A stretch of 64,000 nt of DNA from an uncultured Tenacibaculum sp. (GTDB taxonomy: Bacteria; Bacteroidota; Bacteroidia; Flavobacteriales; Flavobacteriaceae). Positions 33,924 through 48,689 of this stretch are shown here, piece by piece. Both the position numbers and the translations under genes were made by a program. The first letter of the stretch is position 1. Every line of letters begins with the position of its first letter. The notes under the pieces were generated by a model. The model saw nothing but the letters and a program-made list of their open reading frames with translations. It did not search any database and was not told the DNA's origin. The stretch lies in assembly GCA_937922085.1 (NCBI GenBank), contig CAKZVD010000028.1, forward strand, positions 3,542 through 67,541. The letters are read 5' to 3'.

Positions 33924-34811
33924 ATGAAAGCAAAAAATATAACAGATTTTGTAGGAAATACACCTTTAGTAGAAGCTACAAGTATCATAAATAAAGAAAA
34001 AGTACGCTTATTTTTAAAATTAGAAGGACATAACCCTGGAGGAAGTGTAAAAGATAGGGCAGCCTATTTTATGATTTCTGAAGCTTTAAAAAAGAATAAT
34101 ATAAAAAAGGGAGATACTTTAGTAGAAGCAACAAGCGGAAACACAGGTATTGCATTAGCGTTAATGGCTAAAGTATTAGGGTTGAATATGGTTTTGGTAA
34201 TGCCAGAACATGCTACTATAGAAAGAGTGAAAACAATGCGTGCTTATGGAGCTGAGGTTATTTTAACACCAACAGCTGATGGAATGGAAGGTGCGATAGA
34301 TCATGCATTAGAGTTAAAATATAAAAAAGGATATTTTAGATTAAATCAGTTTGATAATTTAGATAATCCTAAAGCACATTATAGTACTACTGGACCCGAA
34401 ATTTGGAGAGATACCGAAGGGCAAATAACACATTTTGTTTCAGCAATGGGTACTACAGGAACTATTACTGGGGTATCAGATTATTTAAAAGAACAGAATA
34501 AAGAGGTTACCATTGTTGGGGTTCAACCAAAAGAAGGTGCAAGAATACCTGGTATTAGAAAATGGCCAGAAGAATATTTACCAGCAATCTTTAAAAGAGA
34601 AAAAATAGATCAGGTTTTAGAAGTAAATCAAGAGGAAGCAAAAGCAATGACGATTCGGTTGGCAAGAGAAGAGGGGATTTTCTCTGGAATGAGTAGTGGA
34701 GGAGCTGTTGCTTCTGCATTAAAATTAGCAGAAACACTTGATGAAGGTATTATTGTAGCTATTATTTGCGATAGAGGAGATCGTTATTTGTCTTCGGATA
34801 TTTTTGTGTAA
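33924..34811 (+). CDS. cysM: Cysteine synthase B
   Basis: NPGGSVKDR, ATSGNTG, IPGIRKWP, CDRGDRYLS. Confidence 0.9.
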   Translation: MKAKNITDFVGNTPLVEATSIINKEKVRLFLKLEGHNPGGSVKDRAAYFMISEALKKNNIKKGDTLVEATSGNTGIALALMAKVLGLNMVLVMPEHATIERVKTMRAYGAEVILTPTADGMEGAIDHALELKYKKGYFRLNQFDNLDNPKAHYSTTGPEIWRDTEGQITHFVSAMGTTGTITGVSDYLKEQNKEVTIVGVQPKEGARIPGIRKWPEEYLPAIFKREKIDQVLEVNQEEAKAMTIRLAREEGIFSGMSSGGAVASALKLAETLDEGIIVAIICDRGDRYLSSDIFV

Positions 34812-34927
34812 ACAAGGCTTTTTATCTTAAAAAGAAACTCTTTTGAAACGGTTTTATTTATTTTTACTGTAAATATAATGGGATAAACGCAATTGTGTTT
34901 ATCCTTACGTTGTAAACAATTGAAATT

Positions 34928-35407
34928 ATGAAATTGAAATTATTCTTTTTATTATCATTAGTCTTTAGTTTAAATATGCATAGTCAAGTTATTGAAGAAA
35001 ATGATACAACTTTCATCAAAGACTATTCTCTATTGAAATCAATCAAGGGAAAATGGAAAAATGTGCACAGTTGCATTGATAATATTGAAGTAGATTGTGA
35101 AAATTTTGAAAAATCATTAAAAAAACAATTAGAGTTAAAAAAAAGTGACACTCTAGGATTAAGAACTCAATTTAATATAATATGCAATAACATGAAAAGG
35201 CATATTATTACAATTACTGATAGTCTTATGATTAGCAGAAATGACACCACTACTTTATATCTAGACAATCAATTAAAAAAAGATATTATTTACACAAAGG
35301 GTATTCAAAATGAATACAAAATAAAAGTTATTAAAATTGATAAGGATTATTTTAGATTACACTCAACTGATAACTTATGGTTAGAATTAAAAAAAATAGA
35401 AGATTAA
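34928..35407 (+). CDS. Cassette gene: hypothetical exported protein
   Basis: Signal peptide; flanked by GTTGTAAAC (34909) and GTTTACAAC (35410). Confidence 0.75.
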   Translation: MKLKLFFLLSLVFSLNMHSQVIEENDTTFIKDYSLLKSIKGKWKNVHSCIDNIEVDCENFEKSLKKQLELKKSDTLGLRTQFNIICNNMKRHIITITDSLMISRNDTTTLYLDNQLKKDIIYTKGIQNEYKIKVIKIDKDYFRLHSTDNLWLELKKIED

Positions 35408-35409
35408 CA

Positions 35410-35547
35410 GTTTACAACAAAGCCTAAAAAACATTGCTTACCGATTTTACCACTTTGAAAAATCAATCGCAAAACCAAAATTCAGGTATATTTATAAACT
35501 AAACGCTAAAATAAACGCAACGATTTCTTAGTTGGAACGTTAGAATT
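35410..35547 (+). repeat. attC-like site, family A
   Basis: AAC-aaagc-CTAAAAAACATTGC...GCAACGATTTCTTAG-ttggaac-GTT; similar to 46319 and 50481. Confidence 0.7.
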
Positions 35548-35659
35548 AATATGAAGTAAACACCAAAATTGAACGTTTTACTAAACAGCAAGTATACTTT
35601 ACTCAATTTGAGTTTTTAAAAGTCAAATCTATAGTTATTTTTGAACTCAAATAAACGAA

Positions 35660-36268
35660 ATGAAAAATCACCTATTATTAATCGGATTCTTAATGTTTAT
35701 TGGGAAATTACTCTCTCAAGAAGTTAAAATTCCAAAGATTGAGTTTAAAAATAAAACGGAGGATTTAAATACCTATATAAATCTACTAAAGATAAAAGAC
35801 GAACAAGCTTTGATAATCAAAATAGGAAGTTCTAGTTATTGGTCTAAAGGACTATATTCCGATTTTCTTGTTTTTGAAAATGATGGAAATGTTTCTTTTT
35901 ATAAATGTTTTTTCCCATTTGATACTAATAAAAAACAGAAAATAAAGAAAGAACGAATTAGAAAATCGAAACGAAAACTTTATTGGAATTTCTTATCCAA
36001 TGCTAATCAAAATAATAGGTTTTCAATAGTAAAAAGTATGCTGAATATAAGATCAAAATCTAATGTAGATGGAACAAGTTCTATGATTTCAGTTTCTGAT
36101 GGACTTAATTACTCACTAGAAATTACTCAAGGAAATAAATATTCTGCATTTTCTACTTATTCCCCACACACCTTTATAAAAGAAAAATTTCCAGATTGGA
36201 AAGAACGGAAAAAATTAGTTGAATTAACAAAAGATATTTACGGTTTAATAGAAAAATACTATTGCTAA
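35660..36268 (+). CDS. Cassette gene: hypothetical exported protein
   Basis: Signal peptide; stop codon lies within ATTGCTAAC. Confidence 0.75.
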   Translation: MKNHLLLIGFLMFIGKLLSQEVKIPKIEFKNKTEDLNTYINLLKIKDEQALIIKIGSSSYWSKGLYSDFLVFENDGNVSFYKCFFPFDTNKKQKIKKERIRKSKRKLYWNFLSNANQNNRFSIVKSMLNIRSKSNVDGTSSMISVSDGLNYSLEITQGNKYSAFSTYSPHTFIKEKFPDWKERKKLVELTKDIYGLIEKYYC

Positions 36269-36273
36269 CAAAG

Positions 36274-36655
36274 GTAACCGTTGCACAACCCTATAATTTA
36301 ACAAAAAACAACTTTAAATACCCCTTTTTAAGAGGCTTGTTTTTTTAGTAATTATAAACAGTTTTTAATTTCGAGAGGCTTAAAAAGTAATATATAAAGC
36401 CTATGAACATCGATTTTATTAAAAACAATGTTCATAGGCTTTAGCCTTACTTTTTATGGTCTTTTTTGTGAATTTTAAATACTTTTTCAAATTATAGGCC
36501 ATAGCAGATACATGTATTACTTTATTTGCCTGTTTAATTCCTAATGTATTTATTTTTCGAAGTCCCATAAACTGGGTTAATGTGCCAAAAACAGGTTCTA
36601 CTGTACTTTGCCGTTTCCCTTTCATATAACAACCTTGTTTACTATGTACTCATTT
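36274..36655 (-). mobile_element. IS1182-family remnant (3' end plus transposase C-terminus)
   Basis: KRQSTVEPVFG...AMAYNLKK; terminus gtaaccgttgcacaac. Confidence 0.8.
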
Positions 36656-36916
36656 ATTTTAACTAAAAAAGTGAGTTAATTTTGTACACTTCTATAAAAG
36701 TTTTATTTGAAAAGTGTACAAAAATTTTATATTGAAAACATTGTGCTACTATTATTATTATTATTTTATAAATTTAAGCTCGAAAAAAGATTAAGAAATA
36801 AGTGATTAAACCTCCTATTCCTTTTTATTTTTAAAAATAAAATATAAACAACATAATGGAGATAAACACAATTGTGTTTAGCCCTTCGTTAGCAAAAATT
36901 TCAAATCACAGCTCAA

Positions 36917-37813
36917 ATGTCAATTATAATTGCTAAGATCGAAGATGACTCTTGTGTATTTAGATCAGATACAAAAGTTTCTATTTTAAATGGAGACGAC
37001 TCAGTTACTGGTGATAACAAGCTACGCTTAAATCCGAATGAGGGCGTTTTAAAAGTTCACATCATTCATCCAGCTATTTGTTTGGCTTTTGCAGGAACAG
37101 TAAACGTTTGTGTAAATATTATTTACGATTTATGCCGCAAACTACCATTAGAACTTAATGAAATATTAACTTTTCTACAAGAGAGCTTAATAGGATATGA
37201 TGATGATTCAGAATTTATCTTAGGTTCTTATTACTTTGAAAAATTAGAATTATATAAAATTGGAAATCAAGGAATAGAAAAAGGAAATTCATTTTGGATT
37301 GGAAATCAAGATGCATTCTCAGAATTCCAGTCATATTACAATAGTGATAATAGAAAAAAATCTTCAAATGACAGATTTCGTGAATCCTTTTATGATTTAA
37401 TTAGATTTTCAAAAATACCCACGATAGGAGACTTTATCATAAGTAGTTATTTTAGGAATAGTCATAAATGCTTTGTTTACAAAGAAGCTTTGATTTCAAA
37501 TAGTGGATATGGGATAATTAAAGCAAAAGCGAATGTACCAACTACTTTATCTGAAGGAACTGTTTTTGAAGGAGCGTTTACTGTTACTAATTTGGTTTCA
37601 GATAGAATTCTGAGACCAGCAGTATGTTTATATTTTCAAAAAGGGCAAATAGCTTATTTATATTTTCCGATTTCAAATTTAGTAAAATCAGCTATTCCGA
37701 TTGTTATAAAAAATATTACCCTAGAAAATCTAAAAGTGGAAGTACATAAACAATATGGAATTAACTTGATTGGATGGTCTTTGAATTTGGGTCACATAAA
37801 AATAGTTAAGTAA
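36917..37813 (+). CDS. Cassette gene: hypothetical, Ntn-hydrolase/proteasome-beta-like N-terminus
   Basis: M-SIIIA...SDTK...K...LAFAG pattern; flanked by GTTAGCAAAA and TTTTACTAAC. Confidence 0.6.
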   Translation: MSIIIAKIEDDSCVFRSDTKVSILNGDDSVTGDNKLRLNPNEGVLKVHIIHPAICLAFAGTVNVCVNIIYDLCRKLPLELNEILTFLQESLIGYDDDSEFILGSYYFEKLELYKIGNQGIEKGNSFWIGNQDAFSEFQSYYNSDNRKKSSNDRFRESFYDLIRFSKIPTIGDFIISSYFRNSHKCFVYKEALISNSGYGIIKAKANVPTTLSEGTVFEGAFTVTNLVSDRILRPAVCLYFQKGQIAYLYFPISNLVKSAIPIVIKNITLENLKVEVHKQYGINLIGWSLNLGHIKIVK

Positions 37814-37854
37814 ATTAATAACTTTATGAATAAAAAAAACTTTTACTAACACCT

Positions 37855-38496
37855 GTAACCGTTGCACAACCCCATAATTTCACAAAAAACAACTTTAAAT
37901 AAGCCTTTTCAAGAGGCTTGTTTTTTTAATAATCGTAAACTGTTTTTAATTTAGAGAGGCTTAGAAAGTAATATATAAAGCCTATGAACATCGATTTTAT
38001 TAAAAATAATGTATTTATGGCTTTAGCCTTACTTTTTATAATCTTTTTTGTGAATTTTAAATATTTTTCAAATTATAGGTCATAGCAGATATATACATCA
38101 CTTTATTTGCCTGCTTAATTCCAATGTGTTTATTTTTCGAAACCTCATAAACTGGATTAATATACCAAAAACAGGTTCTACTGTACTTTGCCGTTAGCCT
38201 TTCATATAACGACCTTGTTTACTATTTATTCGTTTATTATTGCGTTCATATTCTTCTCAGTAATAGGTAACACTAAACTTTTTCTCTTTTGCTGTTTCTT
38301 TATATAAAAAATCTAATTGAAGTATGTCTTTTAATCGTCTGTAAAAATTAGTTACGGGTACATGATCGCTTAAGCGAAAACTATTAAATAACTTCTCTTG
38401 GTATATTTTAACGCCTTGCATAAATAAAAATAAGAAACCTATTAAATCTCAACTCTATTCTAATCTTATTTTTTTGTTAACTTGTGCAACAGTCAC
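37855..38496 (-). mobile_element. Internally deleted IS1182-family element retaining both ends
   Basis: Ends gtaaccgttgcacaa and ttgtgcaacagtcac; transposase N-terminus (MQGVKIYQEKLF from 38421) joined to a frameshifted C-terminus. Confidence 0.8.
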
Positions 38497-38539
38497 ACTG
38501 TATAAAAAACATAGGGAGGGTTATGAGTTCGCACAGGCA

Positions 38540-38926
38540 CTCCAAATAAACAAAAATAATATTACCCAAAACCCCGAAATATATGCACAAAGATAAGCTC
38601 TTATGGAACATCCTTTTGGAACTATGAAAAAATGGGGATTTGATCATATTATGACAAAGAAAACTATAAAAAGGGCTTCTGCTGATGTTGGATTTATCTT
38701 CATTGCCTACAACTTGAAAAGAATCATGAATATCATTGGAATAGAAAAAATTAATAAAAATAATAGTTAGTTTTTCTATTCTTTTTACCCTCAAAAAGGC
38801 TTCTTACAAACATTTAAAATTAAAAACATATTGGTTTACATATATTTTCAATCAACCCCTAAATATTGTTATTATTCTTTTAAATCTGAAATATAAAAAA
38901 GTAAACGTGGGTTTTTAGACAAACTG
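38540..38926 (+). mobile_element. Second, divergent IS1182-family fragment
   Basis: Frameshifted EHPFGT...ADVGFIFIAYNLKRIMNI; probable end gtttttagacaaactg. Confidence 0.7.
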
Positions 38927-39034
38927 ACGTTGTAGCACATTTTGACCCATCTTAGTAAAAACTATTAGATTATGTTTATTTGATAAAGTGTAACACTTTA
39001 TCAAAAGTATTGTCTTTAGTAAAAACTAAACCAA

Positions 39035-40795
39035 ATGAATAATAAATTAGTATATGTACTATTCACAATCAGTATAGTATTATTTTCATGTTCTAACAAT
39101 CCAAAAACTAATTCGGCAATTATAACTGGAAAGGTCAATATCAACTGGTCAAAAACTATTAAATTAAGTAACGGAGCAATTACTCTTACAGATTCCTGGA
39201 TTGATCGAATTAACATAGGAGATTCCATCATTGACCTAAATACTGATGGTACGTTTAAAATAAAATTACCTCTAGAAAAATCTAACTTTTACAGCCTTTC
39301 TCACGAATCAAATGAAATCCAATTATTCCTTTCACCAAATGATTCTCTTCATATCGACTTTAACTCAGAAATCGTGTTTTCTGGCAAGGGTGGAAAACAA
39401 AATAATCATTTAAAATCTTTGAGAGATCAAATTAATTTAAATAGAAAATATATTAATGGAATTGATTTTTATACACAGTCATCTGATGCTGTAAATTCTA
39501 TTTTAGATTCTTTGGAGTTAGTTTATATGAATACACATAAAAAATTTAAAAAAAGTACTCCAGTAAATGAGATTTTTGAACAAAAAATAGTAGCAGATAT
39601 GGCCTATAGAAATAAACTCTATAAAATAAGTCATCCTTCAATATTTAAGAAAAACACGAATAAAAAGCTTCCTATAAAAAAGACTTATTATGAAGATATT
39701 GCTAAAGGAAGTTTTGATAATCCAGAATTATTAAAATCACTCGATTATATATTGTTTTTAGATAGTTATTTAGCTGCACAATCGGCTGGAGAATATAAAT
39801 ATGATATTTATTTTGAAGCTCCAATAGAAAAAATACATCCAAAATATAAAGAGATCCAAAAATTAGAAGCAGATCAAGAAATTAAAAATTATTTATTTAG
39901 TCAGCACCTTCATAAAAGTATGGACGATTACGGTGTTTCATATCTTGAAGACTTAATACCAAAATTTAGAGAAGATTGCAAAAATCCTTTGTTGGTAAAA
40001 CAAATTGAAGATCGTTTTCAAAAAGGTGTTGAGAGAAGAAAAGAAGCAAGTACAATCAAAATCTATAAAAAAATAGGAAATATTGAACTTGAGGCTCATA
40101 TTTTTTATCCTGAAAATTTTAAAGAAAGTGATCAAAGACCCGCTTACTTATTTTTTCATGGTGGTGGTTGGGCAATAGGAATGCCAGAATGGGGATACAA
40201 GAATTGCAAAAAATATAGTTCCAAAGGAATGGTTGCTATTTCGTTTGAGTATCGATTAGTTGATATCCATAATTCCAACATTCAAGATTGCGTTAGAGAT
40301 GCCAAATCTGCGATCTTATGGGTACGAAAACAAGCCAAATCATTAGGTGTAGATCCAAATAAACTTGTCGCAGCAGGATTTTCCGCTGGAGGACATCTGG
40401 CTGCATCTACGGCTATTTTAAAAGGGTATGAAGAAACAAATGATTCTGGAATAAGTTCTATACCAGACGCCATTGTTGTACATTCTGCATCATACAACAC
40501 ACTGAAAAACGAATGGTTTTCAAGGCAATCAGAACAAAACCCTAAATCTATTTCTACATTTCATCAACTAGATAAAAATCTTGTTCCTTCTATCTTTTTC
40601 CATGGAACCAATGATCATTTAGCCCCTATAAATGAGTTTACAGAGTTTAGAGACAAAATGGATGCTCTTGGCAATGATTATGAATATAAAATCTTTAAGA
40701 ATGTTGGTCATTTTTTTAATAACTCTGCAGCACGAAAAACTGTGGATGAAATGACAGAAGCTTTTTTTGTGAAATTAGGATATTTAGAAAAGTAA
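39035..40795 (+). CDS. Cassette gene: lipoprotein with C-terminal alpha/beta-hydrolase (esterase)
   Basis: Lipobox LFSC; HGGGW, GFSAGG, HGTND, GH. Confidence 0.85.
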   Translation: MNNKLVYVLFTISIVLFSCSNNPKTNSAIITGKVNINWSKTIKLSNGAITLTDSWIDRINIGDSIIDLNTDGTFKIKLPLEKSNFYSLSHESNEIQLFLSPNDSLHIDFNSEIVFSGKGGKQNNHLKSLRDQINLNRKYINGIDFYTQSSDAVNSILDSLELVYMNTHKKFKKSTPVNEIFEQKIVADMAYRNKLYKISHPSIFKKNTNKKLPIKKTYYEDIAKGSFDNPELLKSLDYILFLDSYLAAQSAGEYKYDIYFEAPIEKIHPKYKEIQKLEADQEIKNYLFSQHLHKSMDDYGVSYLEDLIPKFREDCKNPLLVKQIEDRFQKGVERRKEASTIKIYKKIGNIELEAHIFYPENFKESDQRPAYLFFHGGGWAIGMPEWGYKNCKKYSSKGMVAISFEYRLVDIHNSNIQDCVRDAKSAILWVRKQAKSLGVDPNKLVAAGFSAGGHLAASTAILKGYEETNDSGISSIPDAIVVHSASYNTLKNEWFSRQSEQNPKSISTFHQLDKNLVPSIFFHGTNDHLAPINEFTEFRDKMDALGNDYEYKIFKNVGHFFNNSAARKTVDEMTEAFFVKLGYLEK

Positions 40796-40823
40796 TGAAT
40801 TTAACTAACGTGCTAGAACAACG

Positions 40824-41295
40824 GTAGCCGTTACACAACCTTATAATTTCACAAAAAATTACTAAAAAATAAGCCTTTTTAAGAGGCTTATTTTTTAGTA
40901 ATTATAAACTGTTTTTAATTTAGAATTCCTTAAAAAGTAATATATAAAGCCTATGAACATCTATTTTATTAAAAACAATGTATTTATAGTCTTAGCCTTA
41001 CTTTTTATGGTCTTTTTTGTGAATTTTAAATACTTTTTCAAATTATAGGCCATAGCAGATACATGCATCACCTTAATCCCTAATGTATTTATTTTTCGAA
41101 GTCCCATAAACTGGGTTAATTTGCCAAAAACAGGTTCTATAGTACTTTGGCGTTTGCCTTTCATATAACGCTCTTGTTTGCTATGTACTTTTTCAGTAAG
41201 CTCTAATTATAAACTGGGTTAATGTGTCAAAAACGGGGTCTACAGTACTTTGGCGTTTGCCTTTCATATAACGCCCTTGTTTACTATGTACTCAT
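40824..41295 (-). mobile_element. IS1182-family remnant with internal tandem duplication
   Basis: KRQSTIEPVFG...AYNLKK; ~41107-41190 repeated at ~41210-41290. Confidence 0.8.
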
Positions 41296-41680
41296 TTATT
41301 TTAACTAAAAAAGAGAGTTAATTTTGTACACCTTTAAAAAAATAGTGATAACGAAGTGTACACTTTTATTTGAAAAGTATACAAAAATTTTAATAAAAAT
41401 ATAGACACATTATCCGTAGTTTGTTTTTTCAAAACATTAAAATAATATAACAAAGTGATACTATTGTATAAAAATTATATAATAAAAACATTGTGCCTCT
41501 ATTATTATTTTATAAATTTAAGCTCGAAAAAAAGATGAAGAAATAAGTGACTAAACCTCCTTTTTCCTTTTTATTTTCTAATATAAAAATTTTAAAACAA
41601 TATAAAAGGTACACTTTATACCATTATTTGGTTGTATAAATGTAATAGTACATTTATATAGTTGTTGTATGTTATTAGAA

Positions 41681-42133
41681 CTATCGTTTCGTCTTTCCTC
41701 TTTCCTGTATATTAGTTGGCCAAAAATCGTGTTCTTTATCTAAAAAAACTATATAATAGACATCATTTTCAACATATCCCGCAACAACTTCTTTACTATT
41801 TGGCTTTATATGAATTACAGCCCAATAAGATGGTTTAACATGTTTTGGCTCGTCAAAATTTGAACATAATGGAAAACCTATCTTAGTATATTGTTTTATT
41901 AACTGTTGCGCTAAAGCATCTGGTGCACTATATTGACTAATTTGTTTCAACCTTTCCATTAATGGACGTAACAGTTTGTAATCTTCCCATTCCTTGATAT
42001 CTTGTCCAAAAGAAACTATATGTTTTTCCCAACTAAAACTTATTTTCCTTTGCTTTGGGCCTTTTGCTTTTCTTTTACCTGGTTTGTTTTCATATTGTTT
42101 ATACCATTCTGTATCATAATTATTTTCACTCAT
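41681..42133 (-). CDS. Putative RelE-like (MAG6450-like) toxin/ribonuclease
   Basis: C-terminal VAGYVENDVYYIVFLDKEHDFWP; start overlaps the ATPase stop. Confidence 0.55.
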   Translation of the reverse strand: MSENNYDTEWYKQYENKPGKRKAKGPKQRKISFSWEKHIVSFGQDIKEWEDYKLLRPLMERLKQISQYSAPDALAQQLIKQYTKIGFPLCSNFDEPKHVKPSYWAVIHIKPNSKEVVAGYVENDVYYIVFLDKEHDFWPTNIQERGKTKR

Positions 42134-43349
42134 ACAAAAAAGATATAAGAGGTTCTACTATATTTATTGACTCAGCTCCACCAAAAGTACTTTCTAAATA
42201 TTTTTTTCTAAAATCAGAAGTGTTTTTTACTACCGAAGTATCGAAACTAGACATTGGATATAACTCTGAAACACCAAACTGGTCTTTATCAGTAAACCAT
42301 ATTTGATCTCTTCTAAATATATCTTTATCTAAAAGTGTCGCATCATGCGCCGTGAAAATGAATTGTGCGTTTTTTTTATTAAATCTATGAAAGAAAGAAA
42401 TAAGTTTTCTTGTTAGATTAGGATGGAACTTAGAGTCAAACTCGTCAATAAACAAGACCTTGCCATACTTAAGTGTATCATAAAGTGCTCCCAAAAAATA
42501 AATTAATTTTCTTGTTCCTTGACTCTCTTCTTTATCAATATCAAAAGGAACAGAATCTATAATAAAATCATTCTCATCATATTTATTGTGGTATGCCAAA
42601 AGCTTATTTTCATTAACTCCTGATTCTACTGAACTAATTTCTAAAAATTTAACTGCTAGAGAAAGCCAATTTTTAAAATTAGGATCTTCTCTTAATAAAA
42701 TAGAAGTAACATTAGAGAAATGTGTATTATCTAGTCCACTAATAATATTAGCATTTTCAAACCAATTAAATACTTGCTTTGATATCTGAGCATTATTCTG
42801 AGCTAAATAACTAAGGAAAAGAACGTTTTTATTAACCTGTGACTTATACTTATTACCTTCCTTAAAGCTTTTATGATTTATCTCAAATTTTGAATTTAAC
42901 CTACTAAAAAGTAAAGTTTCAGTATTAATTTTTCGATAAAGCCATTCTTTTACAATTATTTCACCTAAAATTTCAAAACCATATCTATAAAAAACTCCTT
43001 GCTCAAAAAAAGAAATTTCAAAAAAAGAAGGTTTATTTTCAGTCTCTTGACTTAACTTAAAGTAAAAATCATTCCTTTTTTTATCCTCTTTTTTCTTAAG
43101 TGAATTAGCAAAAGAATTATGAACTAAGTCTTCCATAAAACCAAAAGCTGAAATAAAATTACTTTTACCTCCTCCATTACTACCATAGACAGCTACGGAT
43201 TTCATTAAATTTATATTCTCATTTAGATCAACCAAATTATCATCTAAATGTTCTTTATATGATTTTACAGAAGACATTAAAAGTTTGTTCTCATTTTTAT
43301 ATGAGAGGAAATTTTTAAATTTAAAATCTATTAGCATTTTAAAATACAT
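42126..43349 (-). CDS. AAA_21/RloA-like ABC-type ATPase (start may be 43337)
   Basis: YGSNGGGKS, ESQGT, FIDEFDSKFHP, FTAH, RRDQIWF. Confidence 0.9.
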   Translation of the reverse strand: MYFKMLIDFKFKNFLSYKNENKLLMSSVKSYKEHLDDNLVDLNENINLMKSVAVYGSNGGGKSNFISAFGFMEDLVHNSFANSLKKKEDKKRNDFYFKLSQETENKPSFFEISFFEQGVFYRYGFEILGEIIVKEWLYRKINTETLLFSRLNSKFEINHKSFKEGNKYKSQVNKNVLFLSYLAQNNAQISKQVFNWFENANIISGLDNTHFSNVTSILLREDPNFKNWLSLAVKFLEISSVESGVNENKLLAYHNKYDENDFIIDSVPFDIDKEESQGTRKLIYFLGALYDTLKYGKVLFIDEFDSKFHPNLTRKLISFFHRFNKKNAQFIFTAHDATLLDKDIFRRDQIWFTDKDQFGVSELYPMSSFDTSVVKNTSDFRKKYLESTFGGAESINIVEPLISFLYE

Positions 43350-43356
43350 TTAGTTG

Positions 43357-43364
43357 CAAAAATA
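43357..43364 (-). promoter_or_regulatory. Bacteroidetes -7 element for the inverted cassette
   Basis: TATTTTTG (TAnnTTTG) just upstream of the ATPase start. Confidence 0.55.
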
Positions 43365-43411
43365 CAACAAAAAACACATATTCTGCCAAATAATGGAAGA
43401 AATAAAAAAAC

Positions 43412-43611
43412 AACATACAACAATCTATAAAAAACATAGAGCGGTTTAGGCTTGCCAAAAGGTCACTATTTATTTATAAAGTCGCCAAATATAAAATTTG
43501 GCATTTTCAACAAAAAAGATAAAAGCAAAATATTATATTTGACTAAGTATTAAACTCGAAATGTAGTGCTTATCCTCTGCCCTACGTGTTTTATACTAAA
43601 CGTTAGCTATA
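43412..43611 (+). repeat. attC-like site, family B (~200 bp)
   Basis: AAC-aatc-TATAAAAAACATAGAGCGG...CTGCCCTACGTGTTTTATA-ctaaac-GTT. Confidence 0.7.
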
Positions 43612-43619
43612 ATTAAAAA

Positions 43620-43907
43620 ATGAACACAATATTCTCTACACTGATGATGTCATCTTGGGTTTTAGGAATAATTTTAGTTTTAACATCTAATCCTGTTCGA
43701 ATTATATCTAAGGTTAAAGATTTTGATACAAACATAAATAAACCTTTTTATGGTTTTAAACATATTAGAAAAGCTATTTCTTTAACTTCAGATAATGCGA
43801 TTATTGAAAAATTGAAAAAGAAAATATTAATAAGAAAAATAGGATATTCTTTTTTGATAATAACTCCTGTTTTATTCATTCTTGGGGGAATATTTGATCG
43901 CCAATAA
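43620..43907 (+). CDS. Small 2-TM hypothetical protein
   Basis: 95 aa ORF just after core GTTAGCTATA. Confidence 0.65.
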   Translation: MNTIFSTLMMSSWVLGIILVLTSNPVRIISKVKDFDTNINKPFYGFKHIRKAISLTSDNAIIEKLKKKILIRKIGYSFLIITPVLFILGGIFDRQ

Positions 43908-44029
43908 AAAAGTTATATAAATCTGAATAATGTTCTATTGAAATAATTATAATTGAAAAACTGACCTGAATTTGAATTACTACTTTAATAAATAATAATT
44001 TTATTGTAGCTGAAAAATAATTTATTGTA

Positions 44030-44470
44030 ATGAAAGAGTTAATAGATTTAATAGCTCAAAAACACAGAGTAGATGGAATAAAAATAAATCCTTGCGCCTC
44101 TAACTTTGATATAACTGAATTTGAAAACAAAGTTGGATTTAATTTACCTCAAAATTTTAGAGAATTCTATCTTACCTGTAATGGATTTAGCTGTGAAGAA
44201 GATATTTTTAATATAATGTCTCTTTCAGAAATAACAGACCGATGGGAAAATTATAATGATAATTGGTTTTACTTTTCAGAATATATGATTTATTCAGATA
44301 TGTGGGGCATTAGGATTACTGAAACTGGAGAATATGAAATATTTAATGGAAGTTATCCTAAAAAAACAATTACATCCTCTCTTGAAGAGTTTTTAAAAAG
44401 GTTCTTCAAAGGAAATGTGTTTGACAACGGAGGACTTTATGATTGGCACGAAGAACTTAAAATAAAATAA
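44030..44470 (+). CDS. SMI1/KNR4 family (immunity-type) protein
   Basis: PCASNFDITEFENKVGFNLPQNFREFYLTCNG; SLEEFL. Confidence 0.85.
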   Translation: MKELIDLIAQKHRVDGIKINPCASNFDITEFENKVGFNLPQNFREFYLTCNGFSCEEDIFNIMSLSEITDRWENYNDNWFYFSEYMIYSDMWGIRITETGEYEIFNGSYPKKTITSSLEEFLKRFFKGNVFDNGGLYDWHEELKIK

Positions 44471-44471
44471 C

Positions 44472-44669
44472 TATAGCTAAGACTATATAAAAAGCATAGG
44501 ACGGTTAAGTGTTGTATTGAAAATGTTTTGTTTTTTTGCTGGGTTGTCAAATATAAAATTTGCATTTAAACTAAAATTAAAAACAAAATATTTATATTTA
44601 GCTAAGTGTTAAATCCGAAGTATAGTGCTTATCAACTGCCTTACTTTTTATATACTAAACATTAACTAC
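44472..44669 (+). repeat. attC-like site, family B (degenerate ends)
   Basis: Shares caaatataaaattt, caaaatatt..atattt.ctaagt and tagtgcttatc..ctgcc with 43412. Confidence 0.7.
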
Positions 44670-44679
44670 AATAAAACTC

Positions 44680-45504
44680 ATGATTCCGAAAATTAGTAAG
44701 TTCTACTATTATTTTTATTCAGAAAACCCTCACGCTCTAATACAGTTAATTGGTGATGCAACTGAGTACCATTCAGACTACTCTATTTCAAAGTCAAAGC
44801 AAGAAATGTTTCAAAAGCATCAGTTGTATTGTCAATTATTAAACACAATCGAATTTACACTTGAAAGTTACGGTTACATTAATTTTTTCTCAGAATACGA
44901 AGACTTAGTAGGTGAATTGCCATCTCTTTGTGAATTACTTGAAGAATTTGGGCATTTAGATGTAGTAGAAAACATAAATCAAGCAACGAATTTTTATGAA
45001 AAATATTCGAATCAATTTGAATCTTTACAAAACACGTCGTTGGAACATGATGAAATAGATGCTATTTACGACAAGTTAGATTCAAATTTTGATTCAAAAT
45101 TTGACCTAAATGAACCTATGCTACATCTTTCTAAACAAATAAAAAACACCCCTAATAATTTTTGTTTGGATGAGAACGGTAAGTCTTTTGAAATGGAATT
45201 TACTGGACAACTAGAAACCTTCTATGCGAATAAAAATCTTCAAAAAAGATACTCATTTCATAAAGGTGAAGTACACGGTGAGTGTTTTGAATTCGATTTT
45301 GATGGAAATAAAGAAAGCCTATACTTTTATAAAAATGAACACTCTTACGAACAACTAAAACAATGGTATAAAAATGGCAACTTAAAATATGAAAAATATG
45401 CAGATGATGTTTATAAATATTGGCATGAAAATGGACAACTCCGTATAGAAAGAAATGGAGAAGTTTTTCAAAAGTGGGATAAAAATGGAAAAAAAATAAA
45501 GTAG
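44680..45504 (+). CDS. DUF4375-like domain plus MORN-variant (YwqK-like) repeats
   Basis: WYKNGNLK, WHENGQLR, WDKNGK repeats. Confidence 0.65.
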   Translation: MIPKISKFYYYFYSENPHALIQLIGDATEYHSDYSISKSKQEMFQKHQLYCQLLNTIEFTLESYGYINFFSEYEDLVGELPSLCELLEEFGHLDVVENINQATNFYEKYSNQFESLQNTSLEHDEIDAIYDKLDSNFDSKFDLNEPMLHLSKQIKNTPNNFCLDENGKSFEMEFTGQLETFYANKNLQKRYSFHKGEVHGECFEFDFDGNKESLYFYKNEHSYEQLKQWYKNGNLKYEKYADDVYKYWHENGQLRIERNGEVFQKWDKNGKKIK

Positions 45505-45556
45505 TTAACACTATGTAAAAAAACATTGAAACGCATTTTACATTAACCGTTGTACT
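45501..45556 (+). repeat. Short attC-like site (56 bp)
   Basis: AAC-act-ATGTAAAA...TTTTACAT-taacc-GTT. Confidence 0.7.
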
Positions 45557-45561
45557 CAATT

Positions 45562-46335
45562 ATGAAAAACCCTTTTTGGAAGATAAAATCTATACTAATA
45601 TTATTATTTATACCGTTTTCCATATTTCTTATATTTATTTCAATTTTACTGATTTTATTTAATGAAAAGGATGGATATCTAGTGAGCTTATTATTAACCT
45701 CATTAGGAATAATATTATTTATTTACTCATTAAGATATGTGATAAAAACCAACAAATCTTTCAAAAATGATTTAATAGTTTTCCTGAATGATGATTCAAG
45801 GTTAATAGAGTTATTTAACTATGAGAAAACAGAATGGAACGTTTTTGCTGAAATTTATTACAAAAAAAGAATCAAGAATTATAAGATAATAATGTTTATT
45901 TTAATTCCTATAATAACATCTTTTATGATTCTTATTTATAAAGAAGATTATAGATTATTTATCTTGTTATCTTTTTTGTTCCTTTCAATATTTACTTTTG
46001 TTTTTCTATTCCTAAGAAAATCTCTAATAGAATTTAAATCTAAACTGTTTGACTTTGAGAACCCTGAGGCTAGAGTAACCACGTCAGGAATTCTAATTAA
46101 CAAGAACTATGTAGTATCCTATAATAATCAGGATGGGTTACTAACAAAATGTACATTCGTAGTATTTATAAATATAAAATGTTTTGAATTTACGATTAGA
46201 AGGGCAAGCGGAAAAGGACATACCTACCAATACTTTAATCTATTGATACCAAAAGAAAGAGAGCACGATTCTATAATGATAGAAAGTAGGATAAATGAAT
46301 ATGCTGTGCCAAAAACTAAGTACAACAAAACCTAA
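45562..46335 (+). CDS. Cassette gene: 4-TM membrane protein
   Basis: Flanked by GTTGTACT and AGTACAAC. Confidence 0.75.
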   Translation: MKNPFWKIKSILILLFIPFSIFLIFISILLILFNEKDGYLVSLLLTSLGIILFIYSLRYVIKTNKSFKNDLIVFLNDDSRLIELFNYEKTEWNVFAEIYYKKRIKNYKIIMFILIPIITSFMILIYKEDYRLFILLSFLFLSIFTFVFLFLRKSLIEFKSKLFDFENPEARVTTSGILINKNYVVSYNNQDGLLTKCTFVVFINIKCFEFTIRRASGKGHTYQYFNLLIPKEREHDSIMIESRINEYAVPKTKYNKT

Positions 46336-46453
46336 AAACATTGCTGGCGGATTTCCCCCTTGGAAAAATATTCGCAAAGTTCCAATGTTCAGGTATTTTT
46401 ACTAAATTAACAACTAAACTAATGCAACGTTTTTTAGCTAAAACGTTAACGAT
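46319..46453 (+). repeat. attC-like site, family A
   Basis: AAC-aaaac-CTAAAAACATTGC...GCAACGTTTTTTAG-ctaaaac-GTT. Confidence 0.75.
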
Positions 46454-46463
46454 CATATAAAAG

Positions 46464-46808
46464 ATGAAAAGATTTAAAACCGAAAAGATGATCCACTTTA
46501 TCTACCAGATGCTTATGTACATGGGTGATGTGACTAGAGACAATATTGTTTCTTTTATGCATGGCGCTGATTTCGGTAAATGGAATGAGTCACATTGGAC
46601 GAAATTGCTAAATGAATTTATCGTAATCAAATATAAAATTGAAGAACGAGCAATGGGTTGACCTTATCAAGTTGAGTTATTAAGTAAACGGGAAGGAATT
46701 GAATGGAATGAAGGTTTTAAGAAACTAATGCTTGAAATGATTAGTAAATCTGAGCAAATACCATTTACTAAGAAAATGCAGAACTGGATTAACGATTTAG
46801 AGAACTGA
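46464..46808 (+). pseudogene. Hypothetical gene interrupted by an in-frame TGA
   Basis: ...RAMG*PYQVELLSKREGIEW...; frame stays open for 48 more codons. Confidence 0.6.
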
Positions 46809-46907
46809 AAATTAAATACGATGTTTAATTCAATTTGTATAATTGAAAAATGGTGAATTACGAATTTAAATTCATTGAAAATAACGATGAATTAACTTGA
46901 TGAAACA

Positions 46908-47135
46908 ATGAGTAGATCGAAACAGAAAACTAAAATTCACGGAAATACAACGGCTAAATCTGAAAAAGAAAACAAGCAAAACGCAAATAGAAAATTTAGA
47001 CGAATTGTTAAACAAAAAGTAAAACTGAATAAAGAGAGTTTACCCGAACTAAGGGAAGTCTCAAATGTTTGGTGTTTTGATAAGGATGGGAAAAGATATA
47101 ATTTGGAAATGACTGAAAAAGATCTTCGAAAATGA
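46908..47135 (+). CDS. Small basic hypothetical protein
   Basis: 75 aa: MSRSKQKT...SEKENKQNANRKFRR...SNVWCFDKDGK. Confidence 0.65.
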   Translation: MSRSKQKTKIHGNTTAKSEKENKQNANRKFRRIVKQKVKLNKESLPELREVSNVWCFDKDGKRYNLEMTEKDLRK

Positions 47136-47140
47136 AACTA

Positions 47141-47299
47141 TACGCTAACACTATATATGTGATGAATCGATTGGTTCGTGTATATTAGGTAAGGTACAAT
47201 GCTTACAGATATAAAGTTAACAAACTTTATATCTGTAAATTATTAGCTAAATTTAGAACTTAAATACGTAACTAATCTTATATAAACACGGTTATAGAC
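47141..47299 (+). repeat. attC-like site with long internal hairpin
   Basis: AAC-acta-TATATGTGAT...ATCTTATATA-aacacg-GTT; internal ttacagatataaagtt/aactttatatctgtaa. Confidence 0.65.
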
Positions 47300-47312
47300 G
47301 ATTAGAACTGAA

Positions 47313-47477
47313 ATGTATTTTAGAAACAAAAGAAACATTTATGGAGTAGATATTGGAACCCCTTTAATATATGCAGGTAATCAACCCCAAAGGCTAATTC
47401 CTTATAATTATTCCGGATTAAAAAGTTTTGAAAAAAAATGTTCTTATAAATATGTTTGTACCAATAACTTGAAATAA
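47313..47477 (+). CDS. 54-aa ORF or decayed gene in a ~290 bp cassette
   Basis: MYFRNKRNIYGVDIGTPLIYAG... between GTTATAG (47291) and CTGTAAC (47571). Confidence 0.35.
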   Translation: MYFRNKRNIYGVDIGTPLIYAGNQPQRLIPYNYSGLKSFEKKCSYKYVCTNNLK

Positions 47478-47570
47478 AAAACAACAAAATTTTACAACTA
47501 TGATAACGGAATAAAACACTTGATAAAAGAAATAAAAACTAAAAGGATAATTAAATACTATTAAAAGAGA

Positions 47571-47625
47571 CTGTAACAATATATAAACTGTATTAAAATG
47601 ACAGTTTAAACAAAACGTTATATCT
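47571..47625 (+). repeat. Short attC-like site (55 bp)
   Basis: AAC-aatata-TAAACTGT...ACAGTTTA-aacaaaac-GTT. Confidence 0.65.
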
Positions 47626-47649
47626 GATTAACGAAAAATCAAGATTGAT

Positions 47650-48372
47650 ATGAATAAAGAATTAGAACTATTGCAATCAGAGATAAATAATAATTGTGAT
47701 GAATTACGTAAAATAGATATCAATAAAATAAATATTATAGCTGATTTTGGCAACGAATCTCATATTGAATTAAAGAACAAAGACAGAGGGTGTAGAATTT
47801 ACCCTTTTTATTTTAGCGAAACTCCAATATATGAGTTCGAATGGGATGACTGTCTTATTTTTCAAACATCAAGAGATGATATTAAAAAACAGGTTGAAAT
47901 AATAAAAAGTTGGATATTAAAGAGAACAATGCCATCAGAGGTACAAATTCAGTTTCCTGAAATAAAACTGAACAAATTGGCAAAATACTATGAGAAGGGA
48001 GAGGGAGTAAAAGGCGAATTCATCGAGAGCTGGAATGAAATTGAAGAAAATAACTATAATTATTTATCTGTCGATCCCGAAGAGTATCATACCAGTAAAG
48101 ACACAATTAGATTAATCAAAGAAATGAGGGAGGAAGGGCTTAATGAATCATTAAGAATAGGTTCTCGATTATCTTGGTTAATTTTATCTCGAGCTAGAAG
48201 ACACATTATAAATGATAACACTCCGCATGTAGGTATATATTTCTTTGGGAATAATCAAATGAAAATATATTCTAATTTGAGTGATGAAACTGAAGAATTT
48301 GAGGTGGAAGTAAAATATGAAGAGCATCTCGAAAGATTTGTAAAAGAATTATTAAAAGAAGAGATAAAATAG
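47650..48372 (+). CDS. Cassette gene: hypothetical acidic protein
   Basis: 240 aa ORF after GTTATATCT. Confidence 0.7.
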   Translation: MNKELELLQSEINNNCDELRKIDINKINIIADFGNESHIELKNKDRGCRIYPFYFSETPIYEFEWDDCLIFQTSRDDIKKQVEIIKSWILKRTMPSEVQIQFPEIKLNKLAKYYEKGEGVKGEFIESWNEIEENNYNYLSVDPEEYHTSKDTIRLIKEMREEGLNESLRIGSRLSWLILSRARRHIINDNTPHVGIYFFGNNQMKIYSNLSDETEEFEVEVKYEEHLERFVKELLKEEIK

Positions 48373-48689
48373 ATAAAAAGGCCATTTTAATCAATTGTAG
48401 AGTTGTGCAACAGCCACAATAACTATAAGTAATGCGGAATTTTGGTGTTATCCGAAGGTAGAAGTGTAAATTAAAGCCTGAAAAAACCTTACTTAGAGTC
48501 TTTATCGTCAAGGATAAAAAAATTAAAATATTTATGTTAGTACCAATCCGAAGTGTATCATTTATCCTAAGTTTTTTTAGATGAAAACAAAAAATAAAAT
48601 ACTATTTTGTTTTTAACAACTAATGAGCAATATTCAAAAGAATAGTGTATAAATTTAACTTTGATTTTAATAATTGATATAAATAAAAA

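Follow-up and report, generated by a model that had tools for sequence, protein, structure and literature searches.

Two IS1182 lineages occupy fixed positions in the cassette recombination sites of Bacteroidota

Insertion sequences (IS) that settle inside gene-cassette recombination sites include the IS1111-attC group, on which Tetu and Holmes (2008) and Post and Hall (2009) reportedly carried out studies. According to the accessible parts of two sources, its members ISPa21, ISPst6 and ISKpn4 lie at a fixed place in cassette sites, antisense and near the 5′ end, and use a DEDD enzyme whose guide is a seekRNA made from a long non-coding region (PMC3001079, PMC11187229). Group IIC-attC introns also have a fixed insertion point in cassette sites, on the antisense strand, as given in the available portion of one of them (PMC3001079). 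Here we describe IS1182-family elements at a base-exact position in the sites of an integron-like cassette array, in a 64,000-nucleotide stretch of an uncultured Tenacibaculum sp. (the window; host genome G000:C28:3542-67541) and in its relatives. Like the IS1111-attC elements, those that we call lineage A sit at a fixed cassette-site position, antisense and near the 5′ end; unlike them, they have a DDE enzyme, terminal repeats, a 4-bp duplication, non-coding ends of only ~75 nt and non-classical sites. No DEDD (IS110/IS1111) transposase was found among the NCBIfam/Pfam hits of the elements. They also differ from group IIC-attC introns, which are retroelements without a transposase at classical attC.

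As regards the arrays, IntegronFinder 2.0 found almost no integrons in Bacteroidetes, according to the available part of its description (PMC9024848). In the accessible text on rAID-1 of Bacteroidales, an XerD-family recombinase stands 5′ of co-directional small genes, with repeated intergenic motifs "reminiscent of integrons" and SUKH genes (10.1101/471110, PMC12247911). The arrays studied here share with rAID-1 an XerD-like recombinase heading co-directional genes in relatives (the gene is absent from the window) and differ in their host, Flavobacteriaceae (Flavobacteriales) rather than Bacteroidales; this likeness rests on layout, the identity criterion of rAID-1 being >44% to BF9343_RS08045. 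Site anatomy, cassette barcodes and IS targeting are features of the present system that do not occur in the available rAID-1 passages, and the term "insertion sequence" is absent from both rAID main texts (10.1101/471110, PMC12247911), their supplements lying outside the search. Among the papers that a literature search returned, none dealt with IS1182 at Bacteroidota cassette sites or in attC, with subscription journals, ISfinder and bioRxiv supplements outside its scope.

Fixed-base insertion of IS1182 elements

The original prediction held that IS1182-family elements target a fixed position of cassette sites, and re-reading of the sequence found each of its coordinates correct. Three IS ends begin 4 nt past an AAC, GTAACCGTTGCACAAC at 36274 and 37855 and GTAGCCGTTACACAAC at 40824, after the 4-mers AAAG, ACCT and AACG; three unrelated genes precede them, and the transposase fragments lie on the minus strand. 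The far end of the 37855 copy (38481-38496) continues into ACTG-TATAAAAAACATAGG, and an orphan left end (48402-48417) is followed by AATA-ACTATAAGTAATGCGG. A second IS1182 type stops at 38926, followed by AC and then by GTT at 38929. The lineage A copies of the window are 84-90% identical in pairs, and when the three were aligned, identity began at the IS end with only AACA in common before it; no segmental duplication of their flanks, which would have explained the shared register, is therefore present.

In the host genome, AAC was found at positions -7 to -5 in 15 of 17 candidate right ends (background frequency 0.019), the two misses being a 5-mismatch match, probably spurious, and a MITE (miniature inverted-repeat transposable element) 3 nt off. 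This off-register MITE (G000 C63:53494-53642, 149 bp) has a matched AACA repeat. All 13 left ends adjoin A.....TA, and the 4-mers match in 3 of 10 paired copies. Beyond the host genome, lineage A loci were picked by protein similarity (the best 80 of 306 and the best 80 of 434 in the collection scans) and their ends were found by the inverted-repeat consensus alone, a right end being located in 149 and a left end in 150 of the 186 non-own loci. Seven own-genome loci were excluded, as were 31 of loci L021-L201 in which no right end was found; the transposase match stops early in 17 of these, and the 14 others lie mostly near contig ends. In L095, the only one inspected, another element interrupts the lineage A copy.

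With this sampling, AAC stood at -7 to -5 in 118 of 121 distinct right-end flanks (chance 1.9%) and at no neighbouring offset, while left-end flanks had A at +1 in 113, T at +7 in 111 and A at +8 in 108 of 114. After collapse at 90% identity, the AAC rule held in 69 of 71 clusters from 16 named genera. A closed Polaribacter genome keeps it in 19 of 20 right ends, mostly ~350-bp MITEs or solo ends, and a Kordia genome (G948) in 8 of 9; the ninth is an intact copy that lies in the opposite orientation, in the same register and with a matched ACCG. All 20 right ends of genome G947 lie at cassette ends. The rule reaches other Flavobacteriales families and one genome of another class (L317), and gene-less MITEs (139-149 bp) keep the same target; no relative was found in viral contigs. 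Flanks of other copies are thus not random, and the fixed-position, orientation-biased targeting first proposed for the window holds far beyond it: lineage A is sited at AAC-[ANNR] of cassette sites in many genera, antisense to the array. The two 4-mers match at 4 bp in 33 of 100 full copies (shuffle expectation 14.5 +/- 3.0), at 3 bp in 3 and at 5-8 bp in none. A Myroides albus plasmid (L304:1-3170) carries a lineage A element at AAC+4 and, downstream of it when read in array orientation, a stretch with blaMYO-1.

That the pattern is an artefact, one IS copied with its flank or a mis-assembly, is scarcely credible. The assembly is 68% complete and a unit of IS remnant plus platform was found three times, as such an origin might produce, but the flanks are unrelated, 71 IS clusters, many genera and closed genomes keep the rule, and two junctions are bridged by contigs. 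These two (36274 and 40824) are spanned without differences by contigs of a sequencing run that may be the source sample and so is not independent; no listed contig bridges the 37855 junction.

A second IS1182 group, lineage B, 27% identical to lineage A, includes the element that stops at 38926. Lineage B lies sense to the array, and its repeat NCGT spans the G^TT core (target [NCGT]T, across the likely crossover). The NCGT rule was kept in 47 of 49 distinct ends, one miss being probably no IS end, and the repeats matched in 9 of 15 full copies. Within 45 kb, one array (L232-L234, G524 C54) has six lineage B copies that are nearly identical, plus a fragment, with upstream repeats that are always CCGT and downstream repeats that are CCGT or ACGT. 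In a tree of 26 rows (quick method, LG+G4; unrooted, with long branches), a clade uniting A and B was rejected by the approximately unbiased (AU) test (p-AU 1e-41). Lineage A site-users set apart from palindrome users are not one clade either (p-AU 0.017), so that gain and loss of site use are indistinguishable. Cassette-site targeting is thus found in two separate, non-sister IS1182 lineages.

Family membership is clear for both. Full-length relatives scored 352.5 (A) and 348.8 and 353.3 bits (B) against NF033551 (cut-off 270 bits), and an intact lineage A relative (P0001) is IS1182 by NCBIfam and Pfam. DUF772 and DDE_Tnp_1_6 are present in relatives, and PF13751 (DDE_Tnp_1_6) also in two window fragments; the fragments are 64-80% identical to A and 43% to the lineage B seed used. 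Terminal inverted repeats are identical between ends at 11-15 of 16 positions (116 elements), and the non-coding ends have medians of only 75 and 78 nt, which leaves no room for a guide RNA. The IS1182 family reportedly prefers palindromes (ISfinder/TnCentral). A described member, ISPse1, has 1,653 bp, 16-bp ends and a 4-bp repeat in the portion available (PMC3281130). The present elements are like the family in their DDE transposase, ~1.7-kb length, 16-bp imperfect ends and 4-bp repeat, and unlike its norm in their near-exclusive, base-exact and oriented use of cassette recombination sites. Cytophagia relatives, 44-53% identical and with equal ends, lie in short palindromes with C or G at -5 in 13 of 13 and were not found at cassette sites. 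Other Bacteroidota IS1182 clades (L004, L309, L312, L321-L329) sit in terminator-like hairpins, palindromes or CTAG.

The cassette sites and the layout of the window

Free sites read YAAC-ANNR-arm...arm'-7 nt-GTT and fall in size classes near 50, 118 and 183 nt; a scan found 116 in the loci versus 3 in shuffles. Site lengths (loci L021-L297) step by ~65 nt, as if the loop were a repeated module, and large arrays have one linker family each. An alignment of 44 sites gave a 21-pair bottom-strand stem with 94% of cells paired and compensatory changes in 14 of 21 pairs, figures that lean upward because the sites were selected for arm complementarity; slid controls reached 32-52%. In the consensus, G.T wobbles are fixed and the loop is 2 x 5, with no conserved bulge (no attC extrahelical bases). 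The bottom strand is the more stable in 239 of 269 sites. The sites of the window itself are decayed; that at 35416 folds no more stably than shuffled sequences (z 0.54), and that at 46324 adopts other local helices. Each cassette start is complementary to its own end at 5.1 of 6 positions, versus 2.2 for the same site and 2.1 for shuffles (26 pairs), and the downstream linker is kept in two duplicated cassettes, which points to a crossover at GTT. Judged from the sequences, recombination probably proceeds via the folded bottom strand at G^TT, as strand bias and cassette bounds suggest.

In relatives, the array lies behind a co-directional tyrosine recombinase of ~376 aa and a short palindrome ending in GTT, with up to 26 sites in 18 kb and none downstream on the opposite strand. 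This recombinase scored 204 bits against TIGR02249 (IntI; cut-off 265), in a match split in two stretches. The system resembles classical integrons in its cassettes (GTT...AAC plus a downstream hairpin), bottom-strand fold and head ending in GTT, and differs from them in the recombinase under the IntI cut-off and co-directional with the array, in its ~50, ~118 and ~183-nt sites and in its G.T wobbles. With this recombinase and bottom-strand hairpin sites, it is rAID-like; the original prediction of IS1182 in cassette sites stands, but the sites are not classical attC and the recombinase is not IntI. Acinetobacter plasmids commonly carry an enzyme that is 56% identical to the array recombinase over 231 residues (H81-H95); one record calls it TnpF.

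The host genome (28% G+C) has Flavobacteriaceae as its relatives. In the window, small co-directional orphan genes run from behind cysM (33924-34811) to about 50500; most cassettes have no assigned family, with one SUKH/SMI1 gene among 23 proteins scanned. There are three attI-like heads (34882, 36861, 41635), none with a recombinase gene; in relatives this head layout lies behind the stop codon of the array recombinase. No intact copy of that gene was found in the host genome (assembly incomplete), and four C-terminal fragments lie on other contigs (C49:12324-12563, C16:10561-10731, C30:7082-7222, C81:3702-3842), the one on C16 behind a candidate tRNA-like sequence. The features, which include open reading frames (ORFs), are as follows; the sites at 45507, 47147 and 47575 are called from sequence.

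34882-34911, + strand: attI-like array head (22-nt palindrome, spacer, GTT at 34909), no recombinase gene before it
34909-35418, + strand: cassette 1, ORF 34928-35407; its start GTTGTAAAC is the reverse complement of its own end, 9/9
35416-35541, + strand: free ~120-nt site AAC-AAAG-arm...arm'-GTT, decayed, weak fold
35539-36269, + strand: cassette 2, ORF 35660-36268; barcode 7/9, AAC at its end
36274-36660, - strand: IS1182 lineage A remnant, right end and transposase residues ~426-501, left end lost
36680-36890, + strand: platform segment, common to 41322-41666 and contig C23; closes with an attI-like palindrome (36861-36882) and GTT (36888)
36888-37850, + strand: cassette 3, ORF 36917-37813; barcode 8/9
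37855-38496, - strand: lineage A derivative of 642 bp with an internal deletion, both ends present, residues 1-43 and 403-480; 4-mers ACCT/ACTG unmatched
38497-38520, + strand: 4-mer and left arm of a site, truncated by a deletion into the next element; related strains align from 38523 only
38523-38926, + strand: IS1182 lineage B remnant with the right end (38912-38926) and the 3′ end of the transposase, then target copy ACGT (38927-38930)
38929-40819, + strand: cassette 4, esterase-like ORF 39035-40795; barcode 8/9
40824-41310, - strand: lineage A remnant, right end and residues ~425-503, short internal duplication, left end lost
41322-41666, + strand: platform segment; closes with an attI-like palindrome (41635-41658) and GTT (41664)
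41664-43421, + strand: cassette with two antisense genes, AAA_21 ATPase (42126-43349) and ORF 41681-42133; barcode 9/9
43419-43604, + strand: free ~183-nt site
44479-44663, + strand: ~183-nt site with degenerate cores AAG and ATT, after the SUKH/SMI1 gene (44030-44470)
45507-45551, + strand: short-class site
46324-46447, + strand: free ~120-nt site
47147-47293, + strand: site-like AAC-arm...arm'-GTT
47575-47619, + strand: short-class site
48366-48417, - strand: left half of a ~145-bp lineage A MITE, left end 48402-48417; whole copies on C3, C11 and C61
48418-48445, + strand: 4-mer AATA and left arm of a site, right arm unrecognisable

The antisense pair of the 41664-43421 cassette (AAA_21, AbiEii-type, and its partner of no assigned function) may be a toxin-antitoxin or defence pair.

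How the target is found

We lean towards the reading that each transposase finds its spot through an extended, roughly dyad sequence in duplex DNA, likely with a 4-bp staggered cut. Such duplex read-out is favoured over a hairpin by the 4-bp stagger, the exact reverse copy and the palindrome-targeting sisters. A few insertions lie at arm-less AAC-N4-GTT dyads (L021, L125), and G at +5, which mirrors the C of AAC, has a frequency of 0.32 in occupied versus 0.13 in free sites of the same loci (p 0.003, uncorrected). Lineage A may have refined an older taste for short dyads around a 4-bp centre, as in its Cytophagia sisters, to the cassette end plus arm start, and its unequal ends would set the orientation of insertion. 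Being many and non-coding, cassette sites would offer a safe harbour that travels with the cassettes.

Several observations weigh against this reading. The short motif has 873 matches in the host genome, 131 of them outside ORFs, yet occupied ends carry a cassette-type outer context (p 6e-7 and 4e-5), so that recognition must be long, or have help from structure, a protein or selection. Once the site is folded, the targets of A and B are opposed across one internal loop, as targeting by structure predicts. Many columns were tested, without correction, to obtain the G at +5 and two left-flank enrichments.

A short motif combined with selection could account for the base-exact register: the enzyme would read only YAACANNR..TA, and copies would survive where they are harmless, in cassette sites, the 742 of 873 matches that lie inside ORFs being purged. 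We consider this quite improbable, since about 4% of the 131 non-coding matches have a cassette-type context, against 10 of 14 and 9 of 13 scored ends (scores that include two false and two mis-typed ends), and since the G947 right ends lie without exception at cassette ends.

The original prediction had instead favoured structure-directed targeting, in which recognition of the folded bottom strand, or of an extruded cruciform, brings the transposase to insert at the internal loop by the AAC/GTT helix. The sites are indeed true covarying hairpins with fixed wobbles and a bottom-strand bias, and 66 of 104 occupied right flanks still fold to GTT (null 1.7%), most of the other 38 opening with a recognisable arm. 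Two separate lineages use opposite strands of one loop, with the A 4-mer as one side of this 2 x 5 loop. A lone copy on a plasmid (L298) likewise lies in a hairpin site, and an antisense position near the attC 5′ end is shared by IS1111-attC elements and group IIC introns in the accessible portion of one account (PMC3001079). The hairpin, however, is a property of the site and silent on what the enzyme reads. The 4-bp direct repeat and the exact reverse copy at the same 4 bases suit a duplex target, as do the arm-less dyad insertions and the short palindromes used by sister elements, and on this evidence we now hold the proposal to be unlikely. An Rfam scan returned three weak microRNA matches only.

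Guidance by the recombinase is very improbable in our judgement. Tn5053-type elements use resolvase-bound res sites, and a transposase might similarly be brought to sites bound or nicked by the array XerD-like recombinase. The predicted crossover region has the two targets at its edges, A copies are found 1-27 kb downstream of the array recombinase in G946, G947 and G948, and a genome with a palindrome-using A relative (G812) is without that recombinase at E 1e-30. A Rufibacter plasmid, however, has such a recombinase next to a palindrome-targeting A relative, and off-site dyad insertions keep the register.

Unpaired flanks and the fate of the arrays

A feature overlooked by the original prediction is that the flanks of most copies are unpaired. 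This was the case for 56 of 85 lineage A copies with an intact ORF, for 10 of 15 copies in closed or near-closed genomes and for 9 of 10 paired copies in G947. The mismatches of unpaired 4-mers resemble in size those of random pairs, and the right 4-mer suits its arm family in 16 of 33 cases (free sites 47%), the left in 5 of 33. A 4-mer carried from the donor to the left-end side was considered and rejected, since the right 4-mer fits its arm.

With two-thirds of intact copies flanked by two different sites, lineage A elements likely drive deletions and swaps in arrays. GTT recombination cannot part the two A repeats and no recombinase-type scar was seen, which points to adjacent deletion, composite movement or inter-copy recombination. 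Local re-transposition, adjacent deletion or inter-copy recombination would join a left half-site to the right half of another site, and such joins may delete or regroup cassettes without the recombinase. In other IS families, IS moves coupled to deletions without a repeat have been described, according to the accessible part of one report (10.1101/2024.06.02.596822). Weighing against this reading, reciprocal partners of swapped 4-mers in G947 were not significant (4/8, P 0.11), and in short-read assemblies chimerism may explain some unpaired flanks (L122). Contig alignments gave no clean cassette-skipping joint among the matches listed, no RNA data set appeared among the sequencing runs listed as containing the sequence, and a search for empty sites met few homologous cassettes.

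In L062 and L178, the half-site type is the same at both ends but faces opposite ways, which is what recombination of a normal with a reverse copy would produce. The inner A ends (GTT-GCACAA ... TTGTGC-AAC-A, with AACC before; 36280-36289, 38481-38490) resemble cassette ends, with no sign of recombinase use. Movement of the IS core (GTT...AAC inside the ends) as a pseudo-cassette was rejected, as no scar and no linker-joined end were found.

The combination of an IS right-end remnant, the platform segment and an attI-like head is found as a unit at three places in the host genome, 36274-36888, 40824-41664 and G000 C23:5128-5891, with different genes on either side. The different left flanks of this unit fit half-site swaps. 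Two of the window copies are a right end plus ~80 codons, one is a 642-bp internal-deletion derivative and one is half of a ~145-bp MITE; the window may be the decayed end state of IS-driven array reshuffling.

According to a further part of the original prediction, insertion might immobilise cassettes. Hairpins are intact in 52 of 75 occupied versus 53 of 59 free sites (p 0.006; 59/85 versus 58/68 with a looser cut, p 0.02). Occupied sites keep the stem and G^TT, the IS end supplying CAC in place of AAC (67/72). Cassette barcodes are no more decayed when occupied (30/64 versus 23/43), and the three window cassettes closed by an IS have barcodes of 7, 8 and 8 of 9. A wider proposal, which we regard as doubtful, is that the transpososome recognises the sites by their fold or bound recombinase and usually joins two different sites. 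It would then act as a second engine, independent of the recombinase, for the deletion, fusion and dispersal of arrays across Bacteroidota, and would have evolved on two occasions, on opposite strands of one loop.

Taken together, these results show that a plain DDE family, in two instances, hunts for sites in cassette arrays, besides introns and RNA-guided IS1111 elements. The positions of the two lineages give, to the base, the cores of a Bacteroidota cassette system that is widespread, little described and missed by integron finders, and are a probe for its crossover point. A compact, single-protein, oriented and near site-specific transposase is also a candidate insertion tool. Finally, that two-thirds of intact copies have unpaired flanks suggests a role of the IS elements in shaping the content of these arrays.

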